Virus record (IMG/VR): IMGVR_UViG_3300020429_000529 | Coordinates: 262,762-326,761 of that record | DNA length: 64,000 bases | DNA from: a virus | Strand: one strand, 5' to 3' | In this document: positions 8,804 through 42,369 of the stretch, in pieces | Numbering within the stretch: position 1 is the first letter of the stretch | Layout: every line of letters begins with the position of its first letter | Program-made: the position numbers and the translations under genes | The notes under the pieces: generated by a model | Seen by the model: the letters and a program-made list of their open reading frames with translations, nothing else | Told to the model about the DNA's origin: nothing | The model's database searches: none

Positions 8804-9160
8804 ATGAACTGGTACAAAACTCTCAAAATGGCTCAGATCGGCGCGCCTGTAGACATGAATGCTACTGAAGCGGTCTATCAAAGACTTCTTCAAGCGGATC
8901 GCTCACAAGCCGATGGAGCGTCCGCTGTGGACGACCTCTACGGACAGGGCTACGACCCAGCCTCGATCGAGGGAGCCATTCAGGAGGCTGTCAGACGCAT
9001 CGTGGGGCCTAATGCTGACGAGACCATGCTATCGCCTGCTCAGCAGAGCGTTTTGATGGCTCTGAGGTCTCAATCCCAGGCACCTCAGCCGCCTGGTCTT
9101 CCTATGGAGCCTATTGATGCTCCGATGGATGAGCCCATTGGCGAAGCATGGTACAATTGA
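8804..9160 (+). CDS. hypothetical protein, MNWYK N-terminal family
   Basis: ATG 8804 preceded by gaagaacaggt; N-terminus MNWYKTLK shared with three ORFs at 40.5-42.4 kb. Confidence 0.5.
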   Translation: MNWYKTLKMAQIGAPVDMNATEAVYQRLLQADRSQADGASAVDDLYGQGYDPASIEGAIQEAVRRIVGPNADETMLSPAQQSVLMALRSQSQAPQPPGLPMEPIDAPMDEPIGEAWYN

Positions 9161-9195
9161 AAAAAGGCCCCGCCCGAAGGCGAGGCCTTTGTTTG
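9160..9195. terminator. bidirectional rho-independent terminator between convergent genes
   Basis: aaaaaGGCCCCGCCcgaaGGCGAGGCCtttgttt, with A-tract 5' and T-tract 3'. Confidence 0.7.
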
Positions 9196-9213
9196 TATCA
9201 GCTTGGCTGAGAG

Positions 9214-10866
9214 TTAGTCGGTCAGCGATCCCGACATGAACGACGAGATGACGTTCGGAGTCGCCGTGTCGAAGCCAACAACATCGAGCATTCCCGGGTC
9301 GCTGGGGTCAGCGATCGAGAAGCCGTTGGAGTTCATCGCAACGACTGCGAGCTTTGCATCCTCAACCCTCTTGGCGCGGTAGCGCTTGAGAGCCTCGAAC
9401 GGGTGGATCGAGCCGTAGTAAGTCTCCGAGTCCGTGAGGACCATGAAGGAGTCGAAGTCATCCTGCAGCGACATGGCGTGCGTCATGGGCAGAGAGCAGT
9501 CCGTGCCGCCGTAGGTGAGACCCGACATCTTCTTGAGAACCTGGTCAAGACGCATACGCGGAGTGATTCCAGCGTCCTTGATTCCCGTATCGAAGACCGT
9601 GATCTCGTAGTTGTTCTCGACGCGAGCCGTGACCATGCTGAGTACCGCCGCAGCCTCCGCGCAGGAGACGTTTTCGATACCGCTGCAAGCAACGCCCATC
9701 GAGCCCGAGGCGTCGATTCCGATGAAGTAGTTCTTACCCGTCGCCTCGACGTTGCCGAACGACGCGTAGAAGGCCTCATCCAGAGCATCAACGATGCGCT
9801 GGTCCGCCTGCCAGGTAAGCTTGCCTCGGAATCCTCCGCCCTGCGAGTAGGTCTTGAGCGCTACAAGGACCGAGAGCGGGTGCACTCGGCTCTTGCGCAG
9901 GTACGACTCGTCCGTGAGCTTGTCAAGAACGATCGCACGGTTCGCGCTCTTACCCGTACCAAGCACGCCGTAGCTCGTCAGACGACCGAGCGAACGGATC
10001 AGCGCCGTGAGCGGCATGCCCGGAAGCATGACCTCCCAAACCTCGCCCTTCGAAGCGAACTCCTTCGGGATCAGTTCGTGCGGCAGGTTGATCTTGTCCG
10101 CGCGGTACTTCTCGATGAGGTCAGCGACCTCCTGAGCCGAACCCGCAGCCTTCATCTGCTCCGCAGCGCGGAGAATCTTCAGGTCTGCAGCGATACGCCC
10201 CGGAAGCTTGCCCTTCGTGACGTAATCGTAGACGCGGTTGTGCTTGGTGTCGCCGAACGGGTGAGCCTTACGCATCAGGTCGCGGTGCGACCAGCGAGAC
10301 TGCGTAACGCCCTCCTCGGTAACGCGCTGCGGGTACTTCACAACCTGGTACGCCAGGCGCGAAGCATCCATCTCGTTGTACCAGCGAGCGATCGCCTTAC
10401 GGAGGCCCGTACCCCAGCCGCGCATCGCCGAAACGTACTGCGCGAACTGGAACAGGTGCGTACCGATACGAGCGACCTTCGGCAGCGAAGCGAGCGCGTA
10501 GGAACGCACTTCGGCGTCCTCAGACGCAGCCGCGATCGCAAGAGCGAAGAGCGCAGGCTCGTTCTTCGGAGCGCGTCCGGCGTCAGAGATCGCGACGATC
10601 TCATCGACCACTCGCTTTCCGTCCTCCTTGAGGCAGCGCAGGATGCAGTTGGCGTTGTCGATCGTGAGCTTGCGCTCGCCGACGTAGTAAGTACCGCCCT
10701 CTGAGCCGAGGATCAAGAATCGGCTGAGCCGATCCCAATCGGAGACCTGAAAGACGTACCCGCCTGCGTTGTTCTTGACCTGATTCTTCCCAAGAGCCTT
10801 GCGGGTCTGAGGAGTCGTTCGCATTCCAAAGTGAGTTGAGTACGCCATTTCTGTCACCCCTTTCAA
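9214..10866 (-). CDS. rsr: Ro60/TROVE-domain ribonucleoprotein (Rsr) with C-terminal vWA domain
   Basis: 550 aa; TROVE-like N-terminal region and C-terminal vWA with DxSGS MIDAS (IGIDASGSM); same architecture as Ro60/Rsr. Confidence 0.8.
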   Translation of the reverse strand: MKGVTEMAYSTHFGMRTTPQTRKALGKNQVKNNAGGYVFQVSDWDRLSRFLILGSEGGTYYVGERKLTIDNANCILRCLKEDGKRVVDEIVAISDAGRAPKNEPALFALAIAAASEDAEVRSYALASLPKVARIGTHLFQFAQYVSAMRGWGTGLRKAIARWYNEMDASRLAYQVVKYPQRVTEEGVTQSRWSHRDLMRKAHPFGDTKHNRVYDYVTKGKLPGRIAADLKILRAAEQMKAAGSAQEVADLIEKYRADKINLPHELIPKEFASKGEVWEVMLPGMPLTALIRSLGRLTSYGVLGTGKSANRAIVLDKLTDESYLRKSRVHPLSVLVALKTYSQGGGFRGKLTWQADQRIVDALDEAFYASFGNVEATGKNYFIGIDASGSMGVACSGIENVSCAEAAAVLSMVTARVENNYEITVFDTGIKDAGITPRMRLDQVLKKMSGLTYGGTDCSLPMTHAMSLQDDFDSFMVLTDSETYYGSIHPFEALKRYRAKRVEDAKLAVVAMNSNGFSIADPSDPGMLDVVGFDTATPNVISSFMSGSLTD

Positions 10867-10878
10867 TCGACTCAGAGC

Positions 10879-11424
10879 CTATTCTCTGAGTATGTGAGTG
10901 ATCTCACAAACTAAATCTTCAATGTGCCTGACATTGCCTCTCGGCAACGCAAACCTGTCTCTGTTCCGTCTAATGAATGACCTTATGCGTTGCAGGTCAT
11001 TCTTGTCAAGTTCCCTCGACGAAATTTCTGCCCGAACTGCTTCCTTCCACTCTTTCAGGTCAGATTTCCGAATCTCCAAGCGAGGATCAAACGGAGTCAT
11101 CCAACCAGCTTCGATGTTCGCCTCCATGAAGTCGCTATAAACCCAACTGCTGATCTCGTATTCATCCTCATGGAGGAAATCTCGACCGGCCTTGTGGATC
11201 GAAAGCGCTCGATGGTGCCCGTCTCGTATGTAGAGGGCCTCGTCTTCGAAGCGAGCGATCTGAATCAGTTGTAGGTGCCCTTCTCCTGTTTCATTCAAAT
11301 GGCGCTGAAGCTCTGCAAGGTTGAACCTGCCTCCCTTGCGGACATGTTCGATCATCCGAGAGATTTGGTCAGTGTCTCTCAGATCGGCATGAGTCGGCAA
11401 CAATTCAGCAATGCGCAGCATCAT
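10879..11424 (-). CDS. ParB/sulfiredoxin-like nuclease domain protein
   Basis: IRDGHHR motif (ParB N-terminal DGHHR signature); stop lies 13 nt upstream of the rsr start. Confidence 0.6.
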   Translation of the reverse strand: MMLRIAELLPTHADLRDTDQISRMIEHVRKGGRFNLAELQRHLNETGEGHLQLIQIARFEDEALYIRDGHHRALSIHKAGRDFLHEDEYEISSWVYSDFMEANIEAGWMTPFDPRLEIRKSDLKEWKEAVRAEISSRELDKNDLQRIRSFIRRNRDRFALPRGNVRHIEDLVCEITHILRE

Positions 11425-11490
11425 ACTGCCATTGTATCATGGTCCTATTCACATTGTTCGGAGGAACGTGGGATTCCTCATGTCAGTAAG

Positions 11491-11565
11491 CGGGGTACAC
11501 GGGGATCGAACCCGCAGCCTCCGGATCGACAGTCCGGTGTTCTTCCATGTGCGAACTCCTACCCC
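11491..11565 (-). tRNA. tRNA-Asp(GTC)
   Basis: Manual cloverleaf: GGGGTAG acceptor, anticodon loop CTGTCGA, T-arm GCGGGTTCGATCCCCGT, discriminator G; 75 nt; no encoded CCA. Confidence 0.65.
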
Positions 11566-11579
11566 GAGTTCTATGTAAG

Positions 11580-11653
11580 CGAGGCCGAAGGGACTCGAAC
11601 CCTCAGTCTCCGGATCGACAATCCGGGGCATTCACCAATTATGCTACGACCCC
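11580..11653 (-). tRNA. tRNA-Asp(GTC), second copy with U32 anticodon-loop variant
   Basis: Cloverleaf GGGGTCG...; loop TTGTCGA; T-arm GAGGGTTCGAGTCCCTT; 74 nt. Confidence 0.6.
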
Positions 11654-11799
11654 AAGTTTTCAAGACGGCAGACTGGTCTTTCACCAATCACGCAGCACAA
11701 CAGAGCGCAGTATCAGAAGGTCTTGGCGTCCGATCAAGGACAGATCCTTATGAGTAACCCCGATGTCGCATGCGGTTGTCCCGCATCGCTACCGTCAAA

Positions 11800-11927
11800 A
11801 GCCGCTGGCAGGATTCGAACCTGCATCCTCCCGCTCCATATGCGATAACCGTTTGTCATCGACTCCTTCGCAGGAGTATGGGTTCGACGAACGACCGTTA
11901 GGCGCTCTACCGTTGAGCTACAGCGGC
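11800..11927 (-). ncRNA. tRNA-like RNA (128 nt): canonical acceptor, D-arm and T-arm, but anticodon arm replaced by a structured domain of about 80 nt
   Basis: GCCGCTG/CAGCGGC acceptor, GCTCAACGGTAGAGC D-arm, GCAGGTTCGAATCCTGC T-arm; no 5-bp/7-nt anticodon hairpin; insert has a CTCCT-GCGA-AGGAG GNRA hairpin inside a CCATA/TATGG stem. Confidence 0.5.
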
Positions 11928-11947
11928 AATCAGTATTCAGTTGTAAA

Positions 11948-12073
11948 TGGCCGGGGCAGGATTCGAACCTGCAAGATCAATTTATGAGATTGATGTGTTG
12001 ATAACCTTCATTCATTCGGCTCATTGCTGAGCATGTTATCGACAAAGGGTTGGTGCCATTACACTACCCGACC
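11948..12073 (-). tRNA. tRNA with CAT anticodon (Met/Ile2-type) carrying a D-loop insertion of about 52 nt (126 nt total)
   Basis: Acceptor GGTCGGG/CCCGGCC; D-stem GTGT...ACAC enclosing the insert (GATAAC/GTTATC stem plus GCTCA-GCAA-TGAGC hairpin); anticodon arm TCAAT-CTCATAA-ATTGA; T-arm GCAGGTTCGAATCCTGC. Confidence 0.45.
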
Positions 12074-12087
12074 TAAGTTCCTTTCAA

Positions 12088-12161
12088 TAGCGGATACGGG
12101 GATCGAACCCGTCTCTGCGGCTTATGAAACCGCCCTCTGCACACCAGCCGAGTCATCCGCA
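12088..12161 (-). tRNA. tRNA with CAT anticodon (Met-type); 1:72 is U-U unpaired
   Basis: Anticodon arm GCGGT-TTCATAA-GCCGC; T-arm ACGGGTTCGATCCCCGT; acceptor 6 bp GCGGAT/ATCCGC plus T1/T72 mismatch; 74 nt. Confidence 0.5.
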
Positions 12162-12380
12162 ATCTAAACACGGTTTGCAGGTCATTCTCCTGCCGGGCCT
12201 ACCCTCGGATCAGTCCGAGATCGGTCAGCGTTTGCAACCGCTCCTGCTTCTCGCAGGCGGAACCGTAAAACGTAGCGCCGTCTTTCGACGAGCGCTACAT
12301 GGGGCCGGTTGCGGGTGCCGAAGCACCAGCGTGGCCTCCACCACTTGCTCTTTTGCTTGAGAAGCAAGAAACTCGTTCAA

Positions 12381-12454
12381 TAGCGGGGGAAGGATTCGAA
12401 CCTCCGACCTTTTGGTTATGAGCCAAATGAGCTACCAGACTGCTCTACCCCGCA
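12381..12454 (-). tRNA. tRNA-Met(CAT), initiator-like
   Basis: Near-identical to bacterial tRNA-fMet: GCGGGG-TA-GAGCAGTCTGGTAGCTC...CTCATAA...GGTTCGAATCC; 1:72 U-U mismatch; 74 nt. Confidence 0.6.
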
Positions 12455-12532
12455 ATCAATAAAACAGATATGTTGGCGTTGCTTGGACCTTTGTGTGAGA
12501 TAAGTTAACCAATCAACTTCGACCTGTTTTAA

Positions 12533-12604
12533 TCAGAGTGACAGGAATCGAACCTGCTTAGACCTGGCCCCAAACCAGGCGACCTGCCAATGGCCCACAC
12601 TCTG
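12533..12604 (-). tRNA. tRNA-Pro(TGG)
   Basis: C1-G72, A73; anticodon arm CCTGG-TTTGGGG-CCAGG; T-arm GCAGGTTCGATTCCTGT; 72 nt. Confidence 0.65.
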
Positions 12605-12780
12605 TAATCGATGCTTGCTCCGTCCTCACAACCTCTTACTCTTGGACAGAATCGGGAGCTTACCCCGACAGACTTGCCTTCTTAGGGCGTGCGATCGTGC
12701 GCCGAGGTTTGGTAACGCCGATCTTATCTCCCCGCCTAAACGGGTCTCTGCAAACATCATCTGCTATTCGATTGTCAAAG

Positions 12781-12855
12781 TCGGAGTGATTGGATTCGAA
12801 CCAACGACCTTCTGTCCCCCAGACAGACGCGCTCACCAAGCTGCGCCACACTCCG
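12781..12855 (-). tRNA. tRNA-Pro(GGG)
   Basis: C1-G72, A73; anticodon arm TCTGT-CTGGGGG-ACAGA; T-arm GTTGGTTCGAATCCAAT; 75 nt. Confidence 0.65.
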
Positions 12856-13059
12856 AAACAAGAACAAGTATGGGGTGCCAAGGGAGACCCGACAGATAAT
12901 GTAAGCTCCTGCCTTTGACAGCAGTACGAGACACTTTGCGATTCGCTGGGCTCTGCCGATCTCAGCAAGCTGAGATTTACCCGAGAATCATGTCTCAAGC
13001 TTTTCGCGTAATTGATAACCCTACAGCTTCGACCTGTTCTTCTTATTCAGTTTTCAAAG

Positions 13060-13133
13060 TCAGGATGAAAGGATTTGAACCTTCGACCTCTTACTCCCGA
13101 AGCAAGCGCTCTGCCAAGCTGAGCTACACCCTG
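13060..13133 (-). tRNA. tRNA-Pro(CGG)
   Basis: C1-G72, A73; anticodon arm CTTGC-TTCGGGA-GTAAG; T-arm GAAGGTTCAAATCCTTT; 74 nt. Confidence 0.6.
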
Positions 13134-13247
13134 ATGATTCGCAAGTATGGGGCGGCAGAAGAGTTTGGCTTTCGCCACTTTGTGATCAATACAAGGTGTT
13201 AACCTTCAAACCTTCGACCTGCGAGTCGTTCTTATTCAGTTGTCAAG

Positions 13248-13353
13248 CGCCCTCGATTGGATTCGAACCAACTGTAACCAGGATAACCGTTAACTGTCGG
13301 CCCAATCGGGCATGTTGTCGCCAACGGATCGTGACCCTTGCGGGTCCGAGGGC
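13248..13353 (-). ncRNA. tRNA-like RNA (106 nt): acceptor stem and T-arm present, GNRA hairpin immediately after 5' acceptor strand, no anticodon arm identified
   Basis: GCCCTCG/CGAGGGC acceptor; GTTGGTTCGAATCCAAT T-arm; GACCC-GCAA-GGGTC hairpin; GCCC-GATT-GGGC hairpin. Confidence 0.45.
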
Positions 13354-13894
13354 ATTCTAAAAAAAAGCAGGTATGGGTCGCAGAAGGCGTTACGTTTCAA
13401 GTTAACCTTGTTGCATCGACCTGCAATCGTTCTGTGTTTTGTACGAGGCGTGGGATTCCTCGGTCTGTCAGTGTCTCATCTATCGATCATCGGCAGAGAA
13501 GACTCCCAAGATTCCACGCAGTTTCCTACGAAAATCTTGGACTTTATTCAGTTGTGGAAGTGAGATCGACCTGCTTAGGGGCTCAGATTAGGCCGCCGTA
13601 TCAGTAAACCCGAACGGCGGCAATGCAGGGTCTTCTGCACTTCCGTGGCGATTCGGTTGATCGCCAATCATCTTGTTGATGGTCCGTTCCATGGTCTCCT
13701 CGGTCGTTCAGAGAGGGGCTGTCCCCTCATATAACGCAGAGCTTAGCAGTTTGTTCCGCCCTGTCAAGAGCCTCTATCGACTTTTTTCGCTCTCGACATG
13801 AATGGCAGTATACCAACTCAGTCGTCACCTGCAACCACTTCTTCGTCAGTGGCCAGAATTCCTTCTTGAATATCCAAAAATCTGCCGAACAAGG

Positions 13895-14530
13895 TCATTG
13901 GGTCGTCATGCCGACTTCGGCGATCCCCATTTCTTTGCGGATCTCGGTCGAAGACAACCCGATCAGCGCATCATTGAGAGGCTCTTCGGGTACAAAGTTG
14001 ATCGGCAACTGACCTGGCAGATCGTTGATCGTCCAGAGCTTGTCGTTCATGCGCCTCGGGTAGACATGGAACAAAGCTCTGATGCCCTGCGTCCCGACTG
14101 TCGAGTGCATGGAGACGATCCGCAGCGCCGTATCGATACCGATATGGATATGGATGTCTCGGACAGCAGCAAGAACGCCAGTCTTGTCGTAGAAGAGAGG
14201 ATGCTTCGAGACGATCAGCGGACCTTCGTCGTTGAACTGAGTCGCTCGCCCTTCCATGATCTTCGACTCGATCGTGCCCTTGTTGGCTCGGTCGATTGAC
14301 ATCTCGTAGCAGACATGGGCCGTAGGACCGGCGATCTCCGCTGCTCGCTGGTAGATGGCTCGATGGCCGTCATGGATGGGATTGAAAGATCCTGGTACGA
14401 GATGCAGTACCGAATCGCCGAACGGATGTTCGTCGCCGTTGATCGGATCGATCGCGCCGTTGGGATGGCGGACAAAAGCAAACAACGGGTCGTTCTGACA
14501 GGTGTGGTATGCGATCTCAAAGGTATACAT
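13895..14530 (-). CDS. nicotinamide/nicotinate mononucleotide adenylyltransferase (NMNAT, cytidylyltransferase superfamily)
   Basis: GSFNPIHDGH, the (H/T)xGH nucleotidyltransferase motif; start overlaps the upstream stop. Confidence 0.65.
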   Translation of the reverse strand: MYTFEIAYHTCQNDPLFAFVRHPNGAIDPINGDEHPFGDSVLHLVPGSFNPIHDGHRAIYQRAAEIAGPTAHVCYEMSIDRANKGTIESKIMEGRATQFNDEGPLIVSKHPLFYDKTGVLAAVRDIHIHIGIDTALRIVSMHSTVGTQGIRALFHVYPRRMNDKLWTINDLPGQLPINFVPEEPLNDALIGLSSTEIRKEMGIAEVGMTTQ

Positions 14531-15217: not shown

Positions 15218-15225
15218 GATCGCTC

Positions 15226-16788
15226 CTAAGCGGCGGCTGCCGCCTTCATTGCAACGATCTCGGGCAGTTCGGCTCGTTCGCGGACCTCAGCAAAAGTCCA
15301 TTCCTGAACGATCTCCCCGTCTCGGAAGACCTCAACAAGCAGGTCTCCGCCGAAATCATCAACATTCTCATTGAGGGTATTGATGGTCCGCAGCGTACCG
15401 CCATCGTTGACGAGCGCCAGCAGACCTCGCTTGCTGTTCTTGCTGCTGCCGGTCTTGGGTTGCTTGTAGACCTCAAAGCCTTCGCCGTTGATCTCGCTGT
15501 AGCAAGCCTTGAAAGCGCAAGCGTAGGTGTCTCGGTTCATCTTCTGCAACAGAGCGCCGCCGCTGCCGAAGGCCAGGTTCTCGACAGACCATCCGGCATC
15601 GACAACCGCTTGCAGAATCGCTCGGAGGCTTCGCCAGTTGATACCATCGCCCTGAATGACTCGAATCGAGTCATGCAGAACCTTGTAGCCCTTGGCGTTT
15701 TCGGTGTACCCGAACTTCTCGCCGAGGACTTCGAGAACCTTGGGGACGATCTCGGTCGGTTCGCCCGAATCGGGACGAACAACCAGAACGCCCTCTCGTT
15801 CCATGATCTGTTCCTTGAGTTCTCCGCCCCAGACATCGGCGCAGAGTCCGAACAGGTCATAGGAATCAGAAACGCAGGCAACAAAGCCCGTTGGGAACTG
15901 TTCGACCAGACGGCGACAGATTTCTCGTTCGCCTTGCGGACCCTTGATGGTCATGATCGAGTGTTCGGTTGCGGGGATGCTGTAGCCGCTCATTGTTCGG
16001 CTGTAGAACTCGTCCCATGCTCGGAACGAATCATCTGCATCCCAGTCGCCATGAGGAGTAATGCCAATTCGATCGTATTCGAGCAGCTTCTCGAACTCGT
16101 CGCCCTGGTAGAACTGCGTTGTCATCTCGATCGCAGCCATCGTATCGGTGCCTGCAAAGTTGACGAGATGGGCCGCTCCGCCCAGCGCTGCGCTTTCGAC
16201 GCTCGATACGCCTCGGTAGCCGAAGTCATGCAGGCGACTCGGCATGAGGATGGGGATCAGATGATCCTCGGTCGTCATCTGCATGAACTCGAAGATGGTC
16301 TGCTTGCAGGAGCGAGACAGCGAGGCGACGGTCATTGGATACCAGACTTGTACGAGAATGGTTTCCAAGAAGTTCGTCAGCCAGAAGCAGTTCGGGTCGG
16401 TGTTCTCGATCATCATGAGGACATTCGAGACCGGAACGACCGTACCTTCGGGGACGGCCCGAATCGTTACCGGCAGTCGTCCGCCATGGTTCTTGATGAT
16501 GTATCGCCAGCCCTCTTCATTGAAGAGCGTTTCATCGCCCATGAAGTGGTGCTTACAGAAGGCCTTGATGCGAGGCAGATCATGGTAGCCAACGACGCCG
16601 CCTCGGAAGAACCGCTTGAGGAAGTATTGCAGACCGAAGAAGACGGTTTCGTCAGAGAAGTCTGAACCCGCCCTCGCCTCGAAATACGAGACCAGCCGCT
16701 CAACGCCTTCAACATAAAGACGATGATGCGTGATCTTGTAGCTGTCGGTAAAGTTGGGCAACGAAAGATGAAGTGCCTGCGCTACCAT
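15226..16788 (-). CDS. nadV: nicotinamide phosphoribosyltransferase (NAMPT)
   Basis: 520 aa; N-terminal SYKITHH...YFLKRF and overall NAMPT/NadV-like sequence; adjacent to NMNAT as in phage NAD salvage modules. Confidence 0.75.
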   Translation of the reverse strand: MVAQALHLSLPNFTDSYKITHHRLYVEGVERLVSYFEARAGSDFSDETVFFGLQYFLKRFFRGGVVGYHDLPRIKAFCKHHFMGDETLFNEEGWRYIIKNHGGRLPVTIRAVPEGTVVPVSNVLMMIENTDPNCFWLTNFLETILVQVWYPMTVASLSRSCKQTIFEFMQMTTEDHLIPILMPSRLHDFGYRGVSSVESAALGGAAHLVNFAGTDTMAAIEMTTQFYQGDEFEKLLEYDRIGITPHGDWDADDSFRAWDEFYSRTMSGYSIPATEHSIMTIKGPQGEREICRRLVEQFPTGFVACVSDSYDLFGLCADVWGGELKEQIMEREGVLVVRPDSGEPTEIVPKVLEVLGEKFGYTENAKGYKVLHDSIRVIQGDGINWRSLRAILQAVVDAGWSVENLAFGSGGALLQKMNRDTYACAFKACYSEINGEGFEVYKQPKTGSSKNSKRGLLALVNDGGTLRTINTLNENVDDFGGDLLVEVFRDGEIVQEWTFAEVRERAELPEIVAMKAAAAA

Positions 16789-16811
16789 TGGTTGTTCCTT
16801 GCTCTTGCGGC

Positions 16812-16982
16812 TTAGCTGCCGACCGTGTACCTGATTCCCTTGACGATCAGTCCCTTGGGCGAGATCAGGGCGACTTGGGACTTGGCGTCATCCAGATCGC
16901 ATCCATTTTCTCGTACAAGGATCTCGATGAGTTCATCCTTGCTGACCGTCTTGATTTCCATGGTGGGTGTTTCGTCGCTCAT
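16812..16982 (-). CDS. small hypothetical protein (56 aa), absent from ORF track
   Basis: ATG(16980-16982)...TAA(16812-16814) in the gap between NAMPT and the channel gene, co-oriented. Confidence 0.3.
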   Translation of the reverse strand: MSDETPTMEIKTVSKDELIEILVRENGCDLDDAKSQVALISPKGLIVKGIRYTVGS

Positions 16983-17016
16983 GGCTGTTCCTCCCTAATG
17001 CTCCACGCAGCCCTTG

Positions 17017-18129: not shown

Positions 18130-18144
18130 CTCGGGTCTCCTGAG

Positions 18145-18180
18145 TTTGAAAAAGCCCCTCGTCCTGCGGAACAGGACGAG
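18145..18180 (-). terminator. rho-independent terminator downstream of the PspA-like gene
   Basis: CTCGTCCTG-cggaa-CAGGACGAG hairpin followed on the minus strand by GGGGCTTTTTC. Confidence 0.7.
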
Positions 18181-18200
18181 AGGCAAAGTGAGGGGGTGAT

Positions 18201-20243: not shown

Positions 20244-20252
20244 CCGTTAGGG

Positions 20253-24743: not shown

Positions 24744-24818
24744 TGACGCTGAAGGGAATCGAACCCTCGGACTTCTCCTTGAGAGGGAGAGATTTCTACC
24801 AGCAGAAACTACAGCGCC
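24744..24818 (-). tRNA. tRNA-Glu(CTC)
   Basis: Acceptor GGCGCTG/CAGCGTC; anticodon arm TCTCC-CTCTCAA-GGAGA; T-arm GAGGGTTCGATTCCCTT; 75 nt; 17 nt upstream of the GluRS-like start. Confidence 0.6.
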
Positions 24819-24823
24819 TCGAA

Positions 24824-24895
24824 TGACCCCTACGGGACTCGAACCCGTATTACAGCCTTGAAAGGGCCGCGTCCTAACCATTAGACGAAGGGGCC
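24824..24895 (-). tRNA. tRNA-Glu(TTC)
   Basis: GGCCCCT...; D GTCT-AATGGTTA-GGAC; anticodon arm CGGCC-CTTTCAA-GGCTG; T-arm ACGGGTTCGAGTCCCGT; 72 nt. Confidence 0.6.
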
Positions 24896-24905
24896 AGATT
24901 GTAAA

Positions 24906-24980
24906 TGACGCTGACGGGACTCGAACCCGCGAACTTCGGGATGAAAACCCGAGATTTCTGCCCACAGAAACTACAGCGCC
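24906..24980 (-). tRNA. tRNA-Glu(TTC), U32/U38 loop variant
   Basis: Same acceptor as 24744..24818; anticodon arm TCGGG-TTTTCAT-CCCGA; T-arm GCGGGTTCGAGTCCCGT; 75 nt. Confidence 0.55.
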
Positions 24981-24987
24981 ATGTAAA

Positions 24988-25062
24988 GTGACCCCACCGG
25001 GATTCGAACCCGGATTCCGACCTTGAGAGGGTCGTGTCCTAAACCTGCTTAGACGACAGGGC
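24988..25062 (-). tRNA. tRNA-Glu(CTC)
   Basis: GGCCCTG...; anticodon arm CGACC-CTCTCAA-GGTCG; T-arm CCGGGTTCGAATCCCGG; three G-U pairs in acceptor; 75 nt. Confidence 0.5.
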
Positions 25063-25075
25063 CAAAATTTGAAAG

Positions 25076-25150
25076 CACTCCCAAGGGGATTCGAACCCCT
25101 ATCGCTTGGATGAGAACCAAGTATCCTGAACCAGATTAGACGATGGGAGC
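25076..25150 (-). tRNA. tRNA-Glu(CTC), U32/U38 loop variant
   Basis: GCTCCCA...; anticodon arm CTTGG-TTCTCAT-CCAAG; T-arm AGGGGTTCGAATCCCCT; 75 nt. Confidence 0.5.
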
Positions 25151-32331: not shown

Positions 32332-32419
32332 TTGCCACCCCCGCGCCTGAAAACAACGTAGGCTACAAATGGGTCTTACGAGCGGGAAGGCTTAGATCCC
32401 TTCGCCCGAGTGTCAGCGG

Positions 32420-35673: not shown

Positions 35674-35733
35674 GCTTACCTCGTCATAGTGAGTTTACGG
35701 CATCATTGTAACACGAAAAGTCTTCACATACAG

Positions 35734-36192
35734 TTAGAGAAGACTGCTCATCACTCGGAAATGTTCTTCTTCATCTGCAAGTAGATCGCTTGCGAGATCG
35801 GCAGTTGCAGGATCGTTTGCGAGTTCTGCTTGTTCGATGAGCGCCTTGTAAATCTCGATTGCTTCGAGTTCGGCTTTCATGATAGCAGATACGCTGAGTT
35901 CAGGGCTTGAGGCGTTGCTCATTTCATTCTGCCCCTCGGAGAACTCAGCATTTCTCACATCAAAGGCAGATGGCACCGGATAGCCGAGAGCAAAAAGACG
36001 ACTGGCGAGTTTCTTGGCGTGCCCGAACTCTTCATCAATATCAGGCTCAATCAAATCCCGGACAATCTGACCATTGAAGCCTTTCAGATTGTGAGAGAGT
36101 TGGATATACGCAAGAGCGGTGTTGATCTCTGCGAAGTATCCTTCACGAAGCAGGCGATGAACTTCAGCTTGTGGCTTGGACGACGCTTCCAT
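35734..36192 (-). CDS. ferritin-like diiron protein (bacterioferritin/Dps/rubrerythrin superfamily)
   Basis: Paired E..H helices: EEFGHAKK, LLADEEEHF. Confidence 0.55.
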   Translation of the reverse strand: MEASSKPQAEVHRLLREGYFAEINTALAYIQLSHNLKGFNGQIVRDLIEPDIDEEFGHAKKLASRLFALGYPVPSAFDVRNAEFSEGQNEMSNASSPELSVSAIMKAELEAIEIYKALIEQAELANDPATADLASDLLADEEEHFRVMSSLL

Positions 36193-37252
36193 CTACTTCT
36201 CCTCGGGCGTATGCCCCGCAAACGGTTTCAAGAAGGACTCCGCATACGAGATACGGATCGATGTTTGCTGCTGGTCGTCGGTCCTCAAGGTATCCCTTGC
36301 CTTCTTTGACGATTGCAGGCGGAACTCGGATTGAAGCCCCTCTGTCCGATTCTCCAAATCGGTATTCTTCAATACTACAAGTCTCGTGTTCACCTGTGAG
36401 TCTTTCGTGATTTTGATGTCCGTAGACTTTCAGGTGTTCATCAACTCGCTCTCCGATGGCTTCGCAGATCGCCGTCCAATGTTCCGCAGGGCACTTGTTC
36501 CGCATCTGTCGAGTGCTGAAGTTCGTATGACAACCAGCGCCGTTCCAGTCGCCCTTGATTGGTTTGGGATCAAGCTTGATGGTGCATCCGTGCTGTTCGC
36601 CAACTCGATTCAGAAGGAAACGGGCAAGCCAGAGATTGTCGGCGGCATCAAGAGCCTCAAGCGGTCCTGTTTGGAACTCCCATTGCGACGGCATAACCTC
36701 AGCATTGGTTCCAACGATGCTCATATCTGCCCAGAGACAGGCTTCAAGATGATCGTTGCTGATATCTCGGCCCCACGCAACATCATCTCCTACGCCGCAG
36801 TAGTATTTACCTTGCGGAGAAGGAAAACCAGAGATAGGCCAACGGTAAGGAGCGGTTCCTTCTCCGTCATAGATGGTGTATTCTTGCTCGAAAGCAAACC
36901 ACATTTTATGGCTTTCGTACTTCTCAGCAAGTTCAACAAGACCTGCTCGGGTGCTTGTTTCATGGGGCTTGCCATTAGGGTTGGCAACATCGCACAAGAC
37001 AATCAGAGACATGTCACCTGATGAAGCATTGGGACGGTAGAGAGGATTTTCGATTACTCGCACGGGCTTGAGAATTATATCGCTCTTGTTCCCAGGAGCC
37101 TGGTTGGTGCTTGACCCATCGAAACCCCAGTCGGGATAGTGTTCGGGCTCGAAGCTTCGAAACTCTTCAACATTCATCACCTTGATCTTTGATCTCAGGT
37201 TCTTGACAGCGTTACCATCAAGCCATACATACTCAAGCACCAGCCGAATCAT
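36164..37252 (-). CDS. glutamine synthetase type II (track ORF extends to TTG 37363)
   Basis: MIRLVLEYVWLDG N-terminus, GKYYCGVG and NGAGCHTNFS motifs typical of GSII. Confidence 0.7.
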   Translation of the reverse strand: MIRLVLEYVWLDGNAVKNLRSKIKVMNVEEFRSFEPEHYPDWGFDGSSTNQAPGNKSDIILKPVRVIENPLYRPNASSGDMSLIVLCDVANPNGKPHETSTRAGLVELAEKYESHKMWFAFEQEYTIYDGEGTAPYRWPISGFPSPQGKYYCGVGDDVAWGRDISNDHLEACLWADMSIVGTNAEVMPSQWEFQTGPLEALDAADNLWLARFLLNRVGEQHGCTIKLDPKPIKGDWNGAGCHTNFSTRQMRNKCPAEHWTAICEAIGERVDEHLKVYGHQNHERLTGEHETCSIEEYRFGESDRGASIRVPPAIVKEGKGYLEDRRPAANIDPYLVCGVLLETVCGAYARGEVDGSVVQATS

Positions 37253-37733
37253 TCTTGTTCTCCTCCGCGAGAAATACGCTCTCGACATCCGGCTGAATGA
37301 AGTCAGCAGGTATGTCATCTGTTTTTGTCGGTAGTCTAATGAGATCGCTTGCGAGACTGCCAATGGCTCTTTCTCGGAACCGCTTGGACCGCTGCAGGGC
37401 TTCTTCTATGGAACTGTCTCGAAACGCCATGACCTCTTCTCCTCAACGACCATATCGGTCTTCTGTGGCCAGTAATTCACTGGCTCTACAGCGATTTGAG
37501 GCAAAAGCCTCTTTGATGCGTGTAGTTCTCTTATCCGATGACAGAGTTGGCCGAAAGAACACATTGGCTCTTGGAGGACCGCCTTGTGAGGCTCCCCATA
37601 ATCGATCTCAACTTCTCGGACTGCTCCGTTTGCGAGGAACGAATACGGTTGTCGTTCGCGAACACGCTGACCAGCTTCAGGTGCCGCCGATTTAGGGTAC
37701 AATGAGGTTGCAGTATAAGTCAAAGGTGACATC

Positions 37734-38252
37734 ATGAGCGACCAGGCGATTGCCGAAAAACAACGCAACTACTCGTTTCTCTCGAAGAAGGCCGACTCGC
37801 TCGATTCGGTTGAGATCGATGGTCAAGAGTTTGTTGTTCCAGCGCAGAACGGTTCATGCTATTGGGCCATCATTAAAATCGGGTATCTTCATCATGATGA
37901 GCCCCTCTCACTCGATACTTTCATCGATGAGGTGGCCGAGCTTCTCGAAGAACGAGACCCCATCAAGTGGGACAAGTTCAAGAATAAGAAGCGAGTCAAG
38001 ACGCTGAAGAACGGAGAGGTTGTCGAGAAGCCCGCAAACTGTTGGCGGAAGAGAATCGAGACCAATATCAAAACTTTGACCAGAGATGGCGGCAGCAATC
38101 CTTATGGTCAAAGGCTGATTGAAAGAGGTCACATTCTTCGCTATGAGCCCTTCCACTTCGGAGGCAGAGGGGCTTTTGTGTTGCGCACGAATACCAATAG
38201 GCCGCTTGAACTCAAGAAGGGACGATCATCTCGCGACTCCGAGAAGGAGTAA
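37734..38252 (+). CDS. hypothetical protein
   Basis: 172-aa ORF with aaggtga SD-like upstream. Confidence 0.4.
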   Translation: MSDQAIAEKQRNYSFLSKKADSLDSVEIDGQEFVVPAQNGSCYWAIIKIGYLHHDEPLSLDTFIDEVAELLEERDPIKWDKFKNKKRVKTLKNGEVVEKPANCWRKRIETNIKTLTRDGGSNPYGQRLIERGHILRYEPFHFGGRGAFVLRTNTNRPLELKKGRSSRDSEKE

Positions 38253-38308
38253 CGCAGTCGTTCCCGTAAAGCAACATACGCAATGTCGCGGATAACAGGA
38301 GAGCCAAA

Positions 38309-38497
38309 ATGGGATTCATTCTTGGACTGATCGTAGGCGTCGTCGTTGGCGGCGGTCTTGTCATCGTTTTTGGCAAGAACAACAAGAAGAAGGTAGAGGC
38401 TGCTCGTTCGGCAATCGTCGATGCATATGAGAAAATCAAAGACAAGTTTGATGGCGATGAGGACGATGCAAAGCAGGCAGTTGACAAGATTCGCTAA
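38309..38497 (+). CDS. small single-TM protein
   Basis: acaggagagcc SD; GFILGLIVGVVVGGGLVIVF helix. Confidence 0.4.
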   Translation: MGFILGLIVGVVVGGGLVIVFGKNNKKKVEAARSAIVDAYEKIKDKFDGDEDDAKQAVDKIR

Positions 38498-38578
38498 CTT
38501 ACCAGGCGATGACTGAACAGATAGACCGTCGCCTGTTGAGAAGCAGGCGGCGGTTTTCGCATATAGCCGATATAGACC

Positions 38579-38764
38579 ATGGTTGATCGATGCATCTGTT
38601 TTGATACCACCTTCAAGGAAATCCTTGAGCTTGTTGAGAGCGGTAAGACGCTTGAAGAAGTAATGGAAGAGACAGGGGCGGGCCAAGGTTGCGGAATGTG
38701 CATTCCATACATACAGCTAACCATTGAAACAAAACAGGTCGATCATCCTGTGACTAAGTTCTGA
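38579..38764 (+). CDS. BFD-like [2Fe-2S]-binding domain protein (bacterioferritin-associated ferredoxin-like)
   Basis: CxC...GCGxC pattern: CICFDTT...GAGQGCGMC. Confidence 0.5.
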   Translation: MVDRCICFDTTFKEILELVESGKTLEEVMEETGAGQGCGMCIPYIQLTIETKQVDHPVTKF

Positions 38765-38774
38765 GGAGACAGTT

Positions 38775-39101
38775 ATGGCAATGACATGGGAAGAGGCGCA
38801 GCAAGGCGCTCTCGCTAATCTGATGACTGCGCTGGTTGAGCTTTCACTCAACGGGGCTACGCTTGATTCCAACGCAAGAGATGATCTTGAGGAAGTAATC
38901 GATGATGCCAAGACTGACCTGAATACGCTCGGCGGTCAAGATCTGGATTCAAATATCGATGGCTCCCTTGAGACAGCAATTGAAACTCGCGCTACTGAAA
39001 TCGGAAACATTCAAGCGGGCAAGCTCAAAGATGGAACCCTTATCATCGGCGGCGGCAAGGGCGGCGAAATCGGAGGAGAGGGAGAAGGCGGCATTCTTTG
39101 A
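38775..39101 (+). CDS. hypothetical protein
   Basis: 108-aa ORF. Confidence 0.35.
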   Translation: MAMTWEEAQQGALANLMTALVELSLNGATLDSNARDDLEEVIDDAKTDLNTLGGQDLDSNIDGSLETAIETRATEIGNIQAGKLKDGTLIIGGGKGGEIGGEGEGGIL

Positions 39102-39117
39102 ATCAGGTGACTTTCTG

Positions 39118-39555
39118 ATGGATAGAATGAAGCAGAAGGAGAATGCGATGTTTGGATGGTTTGTGGTAGCTACAAACGCAGTTCAACTTGCGATACTGGG
39201 CAGAGATACAGCGAACCGAGCCCGGAAAACCAAGCTCGGTCGCAATATCGAAAAGAATGTCCGATCTATACCTGAAACTCAGCCTGTCAAAGCAATCCGC
39301 TCGACGAGAGTGGTCCGTTCCTTGGAGGATGGTTGTTCGAAGCTCGTCTCTGCGGTAGGAGATCAGTTGTCAACTGACGAGGCAGAACCGCAGAAGACTG
39401 AAGAGGGCGCTGCGGTTGATTGTCAGGAACATTCGAGTTCAGATAACCAGAGTCCAAAGCAGGCTGAACAACCCGCTGTTGCCAAAACTCCTCAATCGAA
39501 AGACCGCTCAACGGAACAAACATGTCCAACAACTGATTCCTGCCAGCAAAAATAA
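39118..39555 (+). CDS. hypothetical protein, conflicts with convergent ORF on the opposite strand
   Basis: ATG 39118; 3' 270 nt overlap with 39287..40354(-); both overlap regions are low-complexity. Confidence 0.2.
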   Translation: MDRMKQKENAMFGWFVVATNAVQLAILGRDTANRARKTKLGRNIEKNVRSIPETQPVKAIRSTRVVRSLEDGCSKLVSAVGDQLSTDEAEPQKTEEGAAVDCQEHSSSDNQSPKQAEQPAVAKTPQSKDRSTEQTCPTTDSCQQK

Positions 39556-40354
39556 CCGCATCGGTTATCCCAAGATCCCTACATGCAGTAAACCAGATTT
39601 CAAGCGTTCGAGGACCATGCGCTCCTGCTGTACCGTCGCTTGATGTACCTTGAAGCCAGAACGAAGGTATTGCTTGCTTTCCGAGCGAACGAGCATACTC
39701 CTGTATGCGTCGGATGTTCTTGTAGTGGTAATCGTATTTGCCCTCATCAGTATCTTGGTCGGCTATTGATTCATTGACCTGATACGAATGAACATCGATG
39801 AAATCTTGGTATTCAAGAAGAGGAGCAAGCTTCTCTTCTTCTCCATCAACTCTTTCAAGCCCTCGCCTTGACTTTGTGACAAAGCTACAGCCCGGCAGAT
39901 GATACCAAGCATGCTTTGCTTTCGGGTATTTCTTTTTCATCATCTCAAGGAATACAATCATTGCTGGTTGAACAATGTCGGTTATCCGTTCAATCTCTTC
40001 GGGATCTTCGATAGAGTCAGCCGATTGCGTTTGCCCCCAAGTCCCCCAATACTCGCCGATTGGAGGTAGGGTCTCGTTGTCATATAGCATATACCCGTCC
40101 CAGTCGGGAGGAAGAAAGTCTACTCCATCAAGATTACGCTGGGCTTCTTCTACCCAATCCATAGTCCTGCCGGCGGCAAGATCATCGATGTCATAGAAAT
40201 GGGGAGCTAAACTTGTTCCGTAGTGGCGAAAGGCTCGGATTTTGAGATTAGTCTGAGTAAACCAGACGTAATCTTTCTTGGTGTGCGGCCCGAGGTCTAA
40301 CGATCTCAGTTGCTCTACGGGCAAGTTGATACCAAAATGAATACGAGCGGTCAT
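39287..40354 (-). CDS. hypothetical protein (possible glycoside hydrolase-like), C-terminal tail uncertain
   Basis: ATG 40354 preceded by caGGAGcgaac; W/Y-rich globular region, Q/P-rich tail. Confidence 0.4.
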   Translation of the reverse strand: MTARIHFGINLPVEQLRSLDLGPHTKKDYVWFTQTNLKIRAFRHYGTSLAPHFYDIDDLAAGRTMDWVEEAQRNLDGVDFLPPDWDGYMLYDNETLPPIGEYWGTWGQTQSADSIEDPEEIERITDIVQPAMIVFLEMMKKKYPKAKHAWYHLPGCSFVTKSRRGLERVDGEEEKLAPLLEYQDFIDVHSYQVNESIADQDTDEGKYDYHYKNIRRIQEYARSLGKQAIPSFWLQGTSSDGTAGAHGPRTLEIWFTACRDLGITDAVIFAGRNQLLDMFVPLSGLSIEEFWQQRVVQPALDSGYLNSNVPDNQPQRPLQSSAVLPRQLTTDLLPQRRASNNHPPRNGPLSSSGLL

Positions 40355-40499
40355 GGTTCGCTCCTGTTGAAAAGGTTGATGCTGTTGCTGTAGCACTACA
40401 GGGGCACAGATAAAACCCCTTGCGAAAACCAGTTTCGTTAGGGATAAACCTGATGTAAATCTGATTCAGATAGGGAAAACGACCCACCCGAACGGAGGG

Positions 40500-41561
40500 T
40501 TAGAAGCCGGTACTCTCGTTATTCGGATATCTTGTTCCGTAGATCGATGATCGCCAGTCTGTAGAGTATTCGGCCTTTTGTCGGGCATAGTTAATGTGGG
40601 GGATGTTGGTTTTTGCAAGCCTTGATCGATCGATTGCATCCCATGTATTGACAATCAAGTAACGAGTGATGATGCTGTTCGGAGCTTCTTCAAAGTCTCC
40701 ATCCGTAAACTTCTTGTGAGTCTCAGCAACAACATGCTTCAGTTTGTCGAAATCGGATCGAGCAACTGACTCTTCATCAGTGCCGTACTTCCAAAACTCT
40801 TCGCAAACCATGATACCATTGTGCCAGTTCCAGGCATTGAGAGTAAGAACAATCAACTCTCTGGTCTTTGTGTAGCGACACGAAATCTCGTAGGCATCGA
40901 TGACCCATCTCTTGTAATCGCCAAATGACCAAGTAACCTGTTCTTGCTTGAAGTTAGGATAGTCAGTGATCTCTTCGTGATTGCCGTTTTCCATTGCCTT
41001 CTGCGAAGCCGCTGTCTTCTCTCGACCGTAACTACTGGTCAGATCGCGAACAGTTCCGGTCTCGCCGAAACTCGTATCGCCATCGTATTCAAGATATTGC
41101 TTGTAGTATCCCTCAAGGCGACCCTTGGCAAAGACTTCGAGGTCTTTCCAGATCTTTTTGTCATCGCAGTATTCGCAGTCGAACTCTGCATTATCTCTGG
41201 GGTATGCTTTGCCGCTGTCATCGGGATCGGATAGGTTTGGATTATTCTCAGGTATGACAATGAACTTGATACCTATCGAGAACGTACTGTCCTCATCATG
41301 CTTGTAGAACTCTTGGCAACGGAAGTAGTATGTCGGGCATTGCCAGTCTCCGCCCGCTGAGCGAAGTTCGGCATAGACAACCGTCTTGGCATGGTTGCCG
41401 ATGTTGCCCATGTCAATCTCTTTGTCTGCGACAACATCGTCGTTCTCGGTATCAAAGCTGATGCCTGATCGCTCCATTTCGTCGCGCAACAAATCTCGCC
41501 AGAGACTCTGAATCTCTTCGTTATACTCGAAGTCTCGTTTTGCGATCTTGTACCAGTTCAA
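40500..41561 (-). CDS. MNWYK-family protein (353 aa)
   Basis: TTG start overlapping upstream stop; N-terminus MNWYKIAK. Confidence 0.5.
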   Translation of the reverse strand: MNWYKIAKRDFEYNEEIQSLWRDLLRDEMERSGISFDTENDDVVADKEIDMGNIGNHAKTVVYAELRSAGGDWQCPTYYFRCQEFYKHDEDSTFSIGIKFIVIPENNPNLSDPDDSGKAYPRDNAEFDCEYCDDKKIWKDLEVFAKGRLEGYYKQYLEYDGDTSFGETGTVRDLTSSYGREKTAASQKAMENGNHEEITDYPNFKQEQVTWSFGDYKRWVIDAYEISCRYTKTRELIVLTLNAWNWHNGIMVCEEFWKYGTDEESVARSDFDKLKHVVAETHKKFTDGDFEEAPNSIITRYLIVNTWDAIDRSRLAKTNIPHINYARQKAEYSTDWRSSIYGTRYPNNESTGF

Positions 41562-42085
41562 CGTAGCTTCCTATACCAGTTAGAACTCGTCTTTGGCTGA
41601 AGGCCTTCGTTGACCTCTTTACCTTGGTCTTGCCAGTCGATTTTCTCGCGGCTCTTGGATTCGGCAATCTCTTTGAACTCGTCGAAAGGAACTTCGGTCA
41701 TTCCGCCAAAGAAATCGCTTCGATCATAATGATGCAGGTATGCTGTTTTCGCAGCTTCAGCATCATCAAATCCAAGCATAACCTTCTCTTCGTCAAACTC
41801 GTGATCTTTGTACGGATTGACTTGGTGAACAACGTAAGCGTTCTTCGCTTCCCAGTTGGGGCCAAGGTAGACATCGAGCCCTTCCTCGTCGCCGCCCTTC
41901 TGAGAAAAGATGAAGCCGTAATCGTACTTCATCTTGGTTCGCCATTCATGACCATCAGGATCTACGCCGATACGTTCTGTACCAGCGGGATTCTCTACAT
42001 TGATGCGAAGTCCGTTGAAGTCTCGGATCATACCAAGATCTTCTTCGGGCACTTCTGCATGTTTGATGGTCTTATACCAGTTCAT
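41558..42085 (-). CDS. MNWYK-family protein (175 aa), also ends SNWYRKLR
   Basis: ATGA overlap with upstream stop; N-terminus MNWYKTIK. Confidence 0.5.
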   Translation of the reverse strand: MNWYKTIKHAEVPEEDLGMIRDFNGLRINVENPAGTERIGVDPDGHEWRTKMKYDYGFIFSQKGGDEEGLDVYLGPNWEAKNAYVVHQVNPYKDHEFDEEKVMLGFDDAEAAKTAYLHHYDRSDFFGGMTEVPFDEFKEIAESKSREKIDWQDQGKEVNEGLQPKTSSNWYRKLR

Positions 42086-42369
42086 AGTAATGTCTTCTTT
42101 GCCAGAGGCAGGTCAAATTTCCCAAGGTATCCGCCGTCCAAAGATACGTCGCACTTATCTGTTACGGCTCTGCCTGAATGATCTGCTGCATCAGTTTGAG
42201 CAAGAACATTGTGAAGAGCAACGGTCATGCCGCATCGACTGCATCTATTGGTCAGAAAAGCGGTCCATGGACCAAGCGAATGACCAAGATCTTTCGCTTT
42301 ACTCTCAGCAGCGGCAATGTGACTGTCTCTGACAGAATGGACTTCCTTGAGCTTGTGATACCAGTTCAT
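42082..42369 (-). CDS. MNWYK-family protein (95 aa)
   Basis: N-terminus MNWYHKLK; first gene of a three-gene coupled unit. Confidence 0.45.
   Translation of the reverse strand: MNWYHKLKEVHSVRDSHIAAAESKAKDLGHSLGPWTAFLTNRCSRCGMTVALHNVLAQTDAADHSGRAVTDKCDVSLDGGYLGKFDLPLAKKTLL

Follow-up and report, generated by a model that had tools for sequence, protein, structure and literature searches.

This study concerns a short peptide element, here called the tag, that recurs at the ends of otherwise unrelated proteins in a stretch of viral DNA (the window; 64 kb, positions 262,762 to 326,761 of IMG/VR record IMGVR_UViG_3300020429_000529) with a guanine-plus-cytosine (GC) content of 52%. Scanning the six-frame translation of the window for NWY returned five copies, all of which read NWY[KHR]xx[KR]. 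Four of the five follow a start codon, and the fifth ends a protein of 175 amino acids (aa). In 100 mononucleotide shuffles of the window, the chance level was 1.78 for NWY and 0.02 for NWY[KRH]..[KR]. A relaxed scan found no further tag copies in the window, and the DNA word AAYTGGTAY has no occurrence elsewhere in it. The asparagine codon is AAC in all five tags, which is not significant against the 64% AAC usage. The tagged open reading frames (ORFs), numbered 1 to 4, and the features at their junctions are as follows.

8804..9160, plus strand: gene 1, 118 aa, starting MNWYKTLKMAQ; tag codons 8804-8833, with MNWYKTLK at 8804
42082..42369, minus strand: gene 2, 95 aa, starting MNWYHKLKEV; tag codons 42340-42369, with MNWYHKLK at 42369
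41558..42085, minus strand: gene 3, 175 aa, starting MNWYKTIKHAE; tag codons 42056-42085, with MNWYKTIK at 42085
40500..41561, minus strand: gene 4, 353 aa, TTG start, reading (M)NWYKIAKRDFEY; tag codons 41532-41561, with TTG-NWYKIAK at 41561
42082-42085, minus strand: ATGA overlap of the gene 2 stop and the gene 3 start
41558-41561, minus strand: TTGA overlap of the gene 3 stop and the gene 4 start
41561..41584, minus strand: in-frame C-terminal tag copy of gene 3, SNWYRKLR from 41584, then the stop codon at 41558-41560
41547..41581, minus strand: duplicated tag-coding DNA at the gene 3/gene 4 junction, AACTGGTATAGG and, 23 nucleotides (nt) on, AACTGGTACAAG in another frame

A preliminary description of this DNA had reported four ORFs with a common MNWYK-type N-terminus on dissimilar bodies, a 175-aa protein ending in SNWYRKLR, coupling of the three minus-strand genes and a duplicated DNA element at one junction, and all of these observations hold. 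The four ORFs are recovered by translation, their bodies past residue 10 have no mutual similarity (BLASTP, all E > 1), the C-terminal copy runs directly into a stop codon, and the three minus-strand genes are joined by the ATGA and TTGA overlaps. The duplicated element, AACTGGTA(T/C)A(G/A)G, occurs at 41570-41581 and again at 41547-41558, 23 nt apart. Public gene callers pick the same starts, including the TTG of the 353-aa gene. Programmed frameshifting at the gene 3/gene 4 junction was considered and rejected, as direct reading found no slippery site, and scans for promoters and terminators performed no better than on shuffled sequence.

The InPase encoded by gene 3 is the sole annotatable body among the four. 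It is a polyvalent-type domain (Pfam PF18823, residues 22-140, E 5.6e-40) that scores 136.8 bits against a gathering cut-off of 26.8. The body of gene 1, whose ATG is also used in the Tara gene call, is an orphan with no Pfam or PHROG match and almost nothing in homologue searches; an orthologue in a relative, L167, retains the tag as MNWYKTIKLSQ. Gene 2, which heads the coupled three-gene operon and is called identically in public assemblies, matches no Pfam or PHROG family, and no homologue search was made for it. Gene 4 joins two domain families (residues 1-177 and ~200-353) that mostly stand alone elsewhere, and an exhaustive HMMER search gave 218 relatives. Of 85 N-domain homologues, 32 match a strict regular expression for an M[NS]W[YF]K start, and the majority of standalone C-domain homologues start M.W[YF] when read by eye from the listing. 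The C-domain is modelled with a predicted local distance difference test (pLDDT) score above 90, and a fold search with the 353-aa model found no PDB match with E below 0.1.

Some further features of the gene 4 families were seen. Both are widespread and also occur within proteins of 500-950 aa; the N-domain carries the motif AGGDWxCPxxYF and the C-domain (D/N)(V/I)(Q/D)RY. At one locus (L197), an S8 subtilase gene and an untagged homologue of the N-domain overlap at the subtilase stop codon. A candidate second label on untagged N-domain homologues, M[KR]LR.[LI].E, was rejected as family-specific after it proved absent from the neighbours in two loci.

The tag is not confined to these genes. 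Two more copies lie in the same genome, within the 10 kb upstream of the window, so the motif is enriched beyond the four ORFs first described; one is N-terminal (MRNWYKIAK) and the other internal (SNWYKKVKIAD, within a 900-aa CCA-adding enzyme). We also scanned public viral and metagenome contig collections with degenerate DNA patterns of the tag. The loci were retrieved by patterns that contain the tag, so that per-locus frequencies are conditional on one match, and we checked for bias with counts of secondary tags and with a pattern lacking the start codon. Contigs are fragments, which makes genome sizes lower bounds; ORF calls at foreign loci are mechanical, and chance expectations for the collection scans are our own estimates, assuming equal base frequencies.

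These scans show that the four members of the preliminary description greatly understate the scale. About 300 ORFs in viral and metagenome contigs start M-N-W-Y-K-x-(A/I)-(Q/K) among the matches listed. The metagenome scan yielded at least 119 loci (701 kb), in which, again among the matches listed, there are at least 372 copies of xNWY, 307 of them (~83%) directly after a start codon, and at least 237 good tagged ORFs, spread over 77 loci with a maximum of 11 in one locus, on contigs of up to 625 kb and at a GC content of 0.23 to 0.49. Clustering of 220 distinct tagged proteins from about 100 loci gave at least 105 body clusters (BLASTP 1e-5). When the pattern-matching ORFs are excluded, 167 further ORFs at the same loci start M-(x)-W-[YF], and their consensus, free of the retrieval bias, is M-N-W-Y-K-(K/I/Q)-(A/S)-(Q/K).

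Tagged genes lie in tightly coupled arrays, and the viral scans gave loci in which 12-19 follow one another without a break. The longest, in the viral scan, comprises 19 consecutive abutting genes that start MNWY[KR]xIK or near variants (L006; 387-8310 of IMGVR_UViG_3300022916_000010), and nine other viral loci (L004, L005, L010, L019, L022, L035, L036, L039 and L044) have 2-5 tagged genes each. Thirteen of the 19 L006 genes are paralogues of a ~125-aa orphan domain with the pattern IGH...W...GRY...NP.I, for which tblastn found no match in cultured phages, and one gene is a tandem fusion of two domain copies with a decayed internal tag (YANKEIKTALPV).

The pattern lacking a start codon also bears on where the tag occurs. 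In viral sequences it gave 14 matches, 12 of which lie right after an ATG, whereas 596 Gb of bacterial and archaeal genomes gave 16 matches against ~13 expected by chance (our estimate), only one of which follows an ATG and none of which is tag-like. We conclude that the tag belongs to phages and is all but missing from cellular genomes. In Tenacibaculum phage Larrie there is a lone tag-like start, MNIYEKIKKAE, on an InPase-ClpP fusion and with no other in the genome, a single case that is no more than suggestive. Literature searched by motif sequence returned no relevant paper, and the tag is undescribed as far as that literature and the Pfam and PHROG libraries go.

Several lines of evidence indicate that the tag is maintained as protein. 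The asparagine, tyrosine and lysine codons in tags (AAT/AAC, TAT/TAC) track the GC content of the genome, and the amino acids are kept across GC 0.23 to 0.52 while the codons change. Orthologues retain the tag at 39-66% body identity: InPase relatives of 47-66% identity start MNWYR, MNWYK, MSWYE, MSNWYKK or M.YF.L, and relatives of the gene 4 N-domain at ~40% identity start M[NS]W[YF]K.A[KQ]. Because the syntenic relatives L072 and L075 use M(A/G)WYKQA and MWYKxAQ, the invariant core is read as W-Y-K. Since codons drift with GC, orthologues keep the tag and internal copies survive (see below), selection acts on the protein sequence of the tag, not on its DNA.

Structure prediction is consistent with an exposed peptide. 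In an AlphaFold2 model of the gene 3 InPase built from a 34-sequence alignment, the core has pLDDT above 90, residues 1-10 average 52 and residues 161-175 fall below 50, with a short helix at residues 3-6 within the tag. Both tag copies of this protein are thus modelled as flexible appendages outside the fold. On a helical wheel, N2 would act as the N-cap, with W3, Y4, K5, I7, K8 and A10 on one face, and a Pro- or Gly-containing linker appears usually to follow. We consider it likely that MNWYKx(I/A)(K/Q)xA is a portable docking label that works at the protein level: a short N-capped amphipathic helix would hang off each folded body and dock many unrelated accessory proteins to one common partner.

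Copies away from the N-terminus are informative about this possibility. In long ORFs the motif lies at domain boundaries, with its Met replaced by S, K, N or G. The CCA-adding enzymes of the source genome (900 aa) and of an unrelated low-GC phage (902 aa) are 34% identical overall and share (A/G)SNWYKK(V/I)K(I/K)ADASS, 16/21 identical, in the linker before the small C-terminal domain. Two further lineages of the enzyme have the motif, and one has lost NWYK and keeps KKADASS. Standalone homologues of the gene 4 C-domain combine NWYK with a further element, [LI][IV]KTA[SG], which also precedes this domain within long multidomain proteins. The label thus also acts as a boundary element within fused multidomain proteins, and it looks bipartite, with NWYK followed by hydrophobic-K-x-A. 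At the other end of the protein, the N- and C-terminal copies of InPase relatives co-vary, as NWYK with NWYR or as M.YF.L with (A/S)YF(K/R/N)L. The standalone InPase relatives finish with a basic tail, (I/V)NWK(K/R)KGKKV, which is degenerate in the window InPase (41585-41650, IDWQDQGKEV) and is followed there by the extra SNWYRKLR.

The position of most copies could instead suggest an expression element, in which an N-terminal coding cassette, through its nascent peptide or an early-elongation ramp, ensures that translation re-initiates on acquired genes within arrays. A start codon precedes about 83% of copies, the genes abut or overlap without an obvious upstream Shine-Dalgarno sequence, and K-I-K at the core recalls the SKIK translation-enhancing tag. 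In its most frequent DNA form, ATGAATTGGTATAA (for example, window 42071-42085, L019 and L153), the tag contains TGA and TAA in the other two frames, and because of these stops the upstream gene ends at or within the next tag, as in ATGA overlaps and '...ELV*' endings, which would serve such coupling. Nevertheless, wobble positions vary freely, the spacing from the initiator Met varies (MSNWYK, MRNWYK, MWYK), orthologues that are 34% identical still share strongly conserved internal copies, and C-terminal copies recur. Translation-enhancing peptides are defined by a position directly after the start codon, which the tag does not keep, given its internal copies and variable spacing. An invariant Trp-Tyr is also typical of binding hot spots, not of ramps. 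We therefore regard an expression element as improbable.

The same exposed, flexible N-terminal position would fit a degron read by a host AAA+ protease to limit the lifetime of accessory proteins, and the polar-hydrophobic-hydrophobic-basic character of N-W-Y-K resembles the ClpX N-motif 1 class. Such a role leaves the conserved internal and C-terminal copies unaccounted for; moreover, degrons of this kind would be expected in bacterial genomes too, yet the tag is absent there, and hosts across this GC range are probably diverse. Of the explanations we weighed, a degron is the least probable.

The duplicated element of the window is not unique. At several loci an upstream ORF ends in an in-frame tag copy and the next tagged start lies 23-25 nt on in another frame; the C-terminal copy just before the next tagged start was seen in L019/L145, L153 (twice), L091 and L175. 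These recurrent duplicated-tag junctions are of the same kind as the gene 3/gene 4 junction, and by our estimate they make up ~3% of junctions. Close relatives also differ, at tag boundaries, in which cassettes they have and in what order: L072 has an AAA_33 cassette that L075 lacks, and a 165-aa domain that lies upstream of InPase in the comparison of these two loci is fused downstream of InPase in the window. Most tagged ORFs are single modules, and a minority are fusions with internal tags. Within the tagged operons of L072 (10995-13244) and L075 (10534-12789), a PAS-HisKA-HATPase histidine kinase and two response-regulator genes, all untagged, form a phage-encoded two-component system.

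These rearrangements raise the possibility that the tag is only a recombination linker, in which ~30 nt of shared DNA promotes cassette exchange with no role for the protein, a reading akin to the recombination footprint that the preliminary description offered as its alternative. Different cassettes at tag boundaries in syntenic relatives, duplicated-tag junctions 23-25 nt apart in several phages, and fusions and fissions at tags would all be expected. What such a linker does not explain is that amino acids are kept over GC 0.23 to 0.52 despite codon change and that the motif has a consistent helical face and N-cap; the shared DNA would also be too short and degenerate for efficient homologous exchange between phages, and duplication affects few junctions. 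A linker alone is thus very unlikely, and the footprint survives as a side effect: if the tag is a docking label, boundary shuffling and recurrent duplicated junctions would be by-products of its shared sequence.

The identity of the tagged bodies suggests where such a label might lead. We ran Pfam on 105 tagged cluster representatives and used PHROGs in addition. Pfam identified ART-PolyVal (5), GNAT (5), DUF5661 (2) and helix-turn-helix (HTH) families (1-2 members each), and one representative each of DUF5662, cREC_REC, PcfJ, AAA_33, phage lysozyme, 2H/Acb1-like, M14 peptidase and aldo-keto reductase. PHROGs added DNA primase, ATPase, polynucleotide kinase, RNA ligase and transcription regulators. 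The bodies range from ~90 to over 800 aa with a mean net charge of -0.03 per residue, and membrane-like segments occur in 2 of 105 clusters, one of them a false positive. A tagged 'TspO' proved to be a false positive that matches through the native TspO motif WYxxLxKP.

Untagged neighbours include radical SAM enzymes, S8 subtilases, NAD synthase, PhoH, ADP-ribosylglycohydrolase, DnaJ and ligases, as well as RNA ligase, PNKP and the CCA enzyme. We found no head genes among the neighbours of tagged arrays, and no MuF, portal or DarA among the 25 best Pfam families of tagged proteins or neighbours. In the loci examined there was no conserved neighbour that could be a candidate receptor, only lineage-specific synteny with YAcAr and an HExxH protein. 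Among 468 cultured-phage records with an InPase domain, annotations of the proteins frequently read minor head, structural or portal protein, and in phage Larrie the InPase is fused to a ClpP-type prohead protease. This version of InPase, described from phage polyvalent proteins by Iyer et al. (2017; PMC5512222), is predicted there to enter virions; a term search of that paper found no mention of an N-terminal peptide or linker motif.

On these grounds we tentatively propose, at clearly less than even odds, a model in which the docking label has the capsid as its destination. The common partner would be the core, scaffold or portal of the assembling phage head, and the tagged proteins would be packaged and delivered with the DNA, as with the T-even capsid-targeting sequence; the tagged set would then be an unbundled version of phage polyvalent proteins. 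We favour the capsid as a destination because the tagged repertoire is of the polyvalent type, because InPase occurs in head proteins of cultured phages, and because giant phages load about 50 proteins into their heads through targeting that is poorly understood (PMC5694885; PMC7411985).

A number of observations weigh against this model. No conserved cleavage site follows the tag: Glu is found at position 11 in 21 of 237 ORFs (~9%, among the matches listed), where Q, S, N and D are about as common, and some tagged members read K-(L/F/H)-A-E. Tagged arrays are flanked by accessory and RNA-repair genes, never by head genes, and the window itself is without structural genes. The bodies are slightly acidic, unlike the basic internal proteins of T4. 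Cytoplasmic work would be expected of the tagged primase, RNA ligase, polynucleotide kinase, ATPase and HTH regulators and of the CCA-adding enzyme with its internal tag. A T4-type signal is N-terminal and cleaved, which leaves conserved internal copies unexplained. Finally, neither blastn of the locus nor tblastn of the L006 family found a cultured phage that bears the tag. Of the targeting, packaging or protease-recognition signal first suggested, what is supported is a portable, shared element selected as protein that behaves like a signal, whereas packaging and processing find no support in a conserved cleavage site or in nearby head genes.

Several of these points would fit a label for a hub outside the virion, which could be a factory for replication or RNA repair, nucleic acid or tRNA, the ribosome, or a chaperone of phage or host origin. 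All of the protein-level evidence for a docking label applies equally to such a hub. The tagged primase, RNA ligase, polynucleotide kinase, HTH regulators and kinases would be at home there, as would the tag conserved just before the small C-terminal domain of CCA-adding enzymes, the neighbouring RNA ligase, PNKP, CCA enzyme, PhoH and DnaJ, and the tRNA clusters of the window; aromatic-plus-lysine chemistry would also suit contact with nucleic acid. On the other side, no candidate hub gene co-occurs in the loci examined, we know of no example of a short universal hub label in phages, and the enrichment of polyvalent-type effectors and the InPase in cultured-phage heads point to virions. We rate a non-virion hub as only slightly less probable than the capsid, and the tagged primases and RNA-repair enzymes suit either equally well.

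Whichever destination applies, we lean towards the view that the docking label is a previously undescribed addressing code of large uncultivated phages, in which one decapeptide on ~100 families specifies a single destination (the capsid or a phage-built hub) and modules are fused, split and shuffled at the label. If the tag is a targeting signal, it would mark, from sequence alone, one delivered or co-localised toolkit in huge uncultivated phages. This toolkit would be a large minority of the ORFs in tag-retrieved loci, and many unannotated phage genes would become interpretable. The T4 capsid-targeting principle would extend to a broad and distant group of phages, a compact cargo-loading tag could become available for engineering, and there would be hints of a path between polyvalent proteins and single-domain effectors in either direction. 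Should the destination lie outside the virion, the label would point to an organising hub in megaphage infection.

The wider setting of the tagged genes reads as the accessory region of a marine megaphage of roughly 500 kb. Identical proteins are also found on Tara Oceans contigs of 498.6-502.5 kb, and blastn of the locus DNA found no similarity to cultured phages. Pfam, PHROG and public gene annotations identified no structural genes in the window, which contains at least 12 tRNA genes. Its other products include a YspA-type SLOG protein, NAMPT, a sigma factor, glutamine synthetase, ferritin and peptide deformylase. NAMPT and the sigma-factor-like protein were placed by PHROG matches, and glutamine synthetase, ferritin/rubrerythrin and peptide deformylase come from the L063 Pfam table, with window coordinates that are approximate and assigned by eye. 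The remaining features are listed here.

11490-13133 and 24744-25150, minus strand: two tRNA clusters, 12 genes by ARAGORN (Asp x2, Met x3, Pro x3, Glu x4)
11800-11927 (128 nt, possibly intron-containing or a fused match) and 24906-24980: additional tRNA candidates from Rfam
9214-10866, minus strand: Ro60/TROVE plus vWA protein, 550 aa, adjoining a tRNA cluster
15226-16788, 54999-56219, about 36164-37363, and 44761-45348: auxiliary genes typical of huge phages, from PHROG/Pfam
8164-8790, plus strand: 208-aa protein with two repeats, directly upstream of gene 1 (8804)

Rfam at gathering thresholds gave no Y-RNA-like partner for the Ro60/TROVE protein. The 208-aa protein has HExxH (HEMLH) in its first repeat, lost in the second, and may be a metallopeptidase; a homologue (49% identity) also lies near the orthologous tagged gene in L167.

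Among known systems, the T-even capsid-targeting sequence offers the best available analogy for the tag; the preliminary description had pointed to capsid-targeting peptides of large phages. In T4 this sequence, MKTYQEFIAE, is carried by small, hypervariable internal proteins with anti-defence roles (10.1101/2021.01.19.427310; PMC3012670), and it suffices to load foreign proteins into heads (10.1101/2021.01.19.427310; PMC3012670; PMC5694885). As in the T-even IPI-III and Alt proteins, a ~10-residue N-terminal peptide is the sole conserved part of otherwise unrelated proteins, is portable to any body, and belongs to genes in plastic accessory regions near tRNA genes; the tag shares the architecture that defines a capsid-targeting sequence. 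A loose pattern, M-x-x-Y-x-x-hydrophobic-x-(x)-A-E, even matches the window start MNWYKTIKHAE. In contrast to the T-even sequence, the tag has a different consensus and no obligatory (L/I)-x-E cleavage site, its bodies are not small and highly basic, and it serves at least 105 families, cytoplasmic enzymes included. Its copies are conserved internally and C-terminally as well, and its packaging and processing are putative.

Encapsulin cargo-loading peptides provide a second parallel, as short conserved peptides on unrelated cargo enzymes that dock inside an HK97-fold shell. Like the tag, they can lie at either terminus and outside the fold. Unlike the tag, they have another consensus, are usually C-terminal, belong to cargo genes beside the shell gene and involve no injection.

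With phage polyvalent proteins, as described by Iyer et al. (2017; PMC5512222), the tagged set shares a repertoire of ART-PolyVal, InPase, PcfJ, 2H, GNAT, lysozyme and kinases, a predicted role as early counter-defence or takeover proteins delivered with the DNA, and the fusion and fission of modules. Those polyvalent proteins combine 2-15 domains per polypeptide, anchored to MuF, portal or DarA-type domains, whereas tagged modules are mostly separate genes with their own short label, and no MuF or portal fusion was seen. Finally, N-terminal regions also send anti-restriction and ejection proteins into heads in P1 (Dar), SPN3US and phiKZ (PMC9024508, PMC5694885, PMC7411985), and giant phages such as SPN3US and phiKZ package dozens of proteins (PMC5694885, PMC7411985). 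The signals of these phages span 30 to more than 100 residues and are family-specific, whereas the tag is a decapeptide shared by ~100 families.

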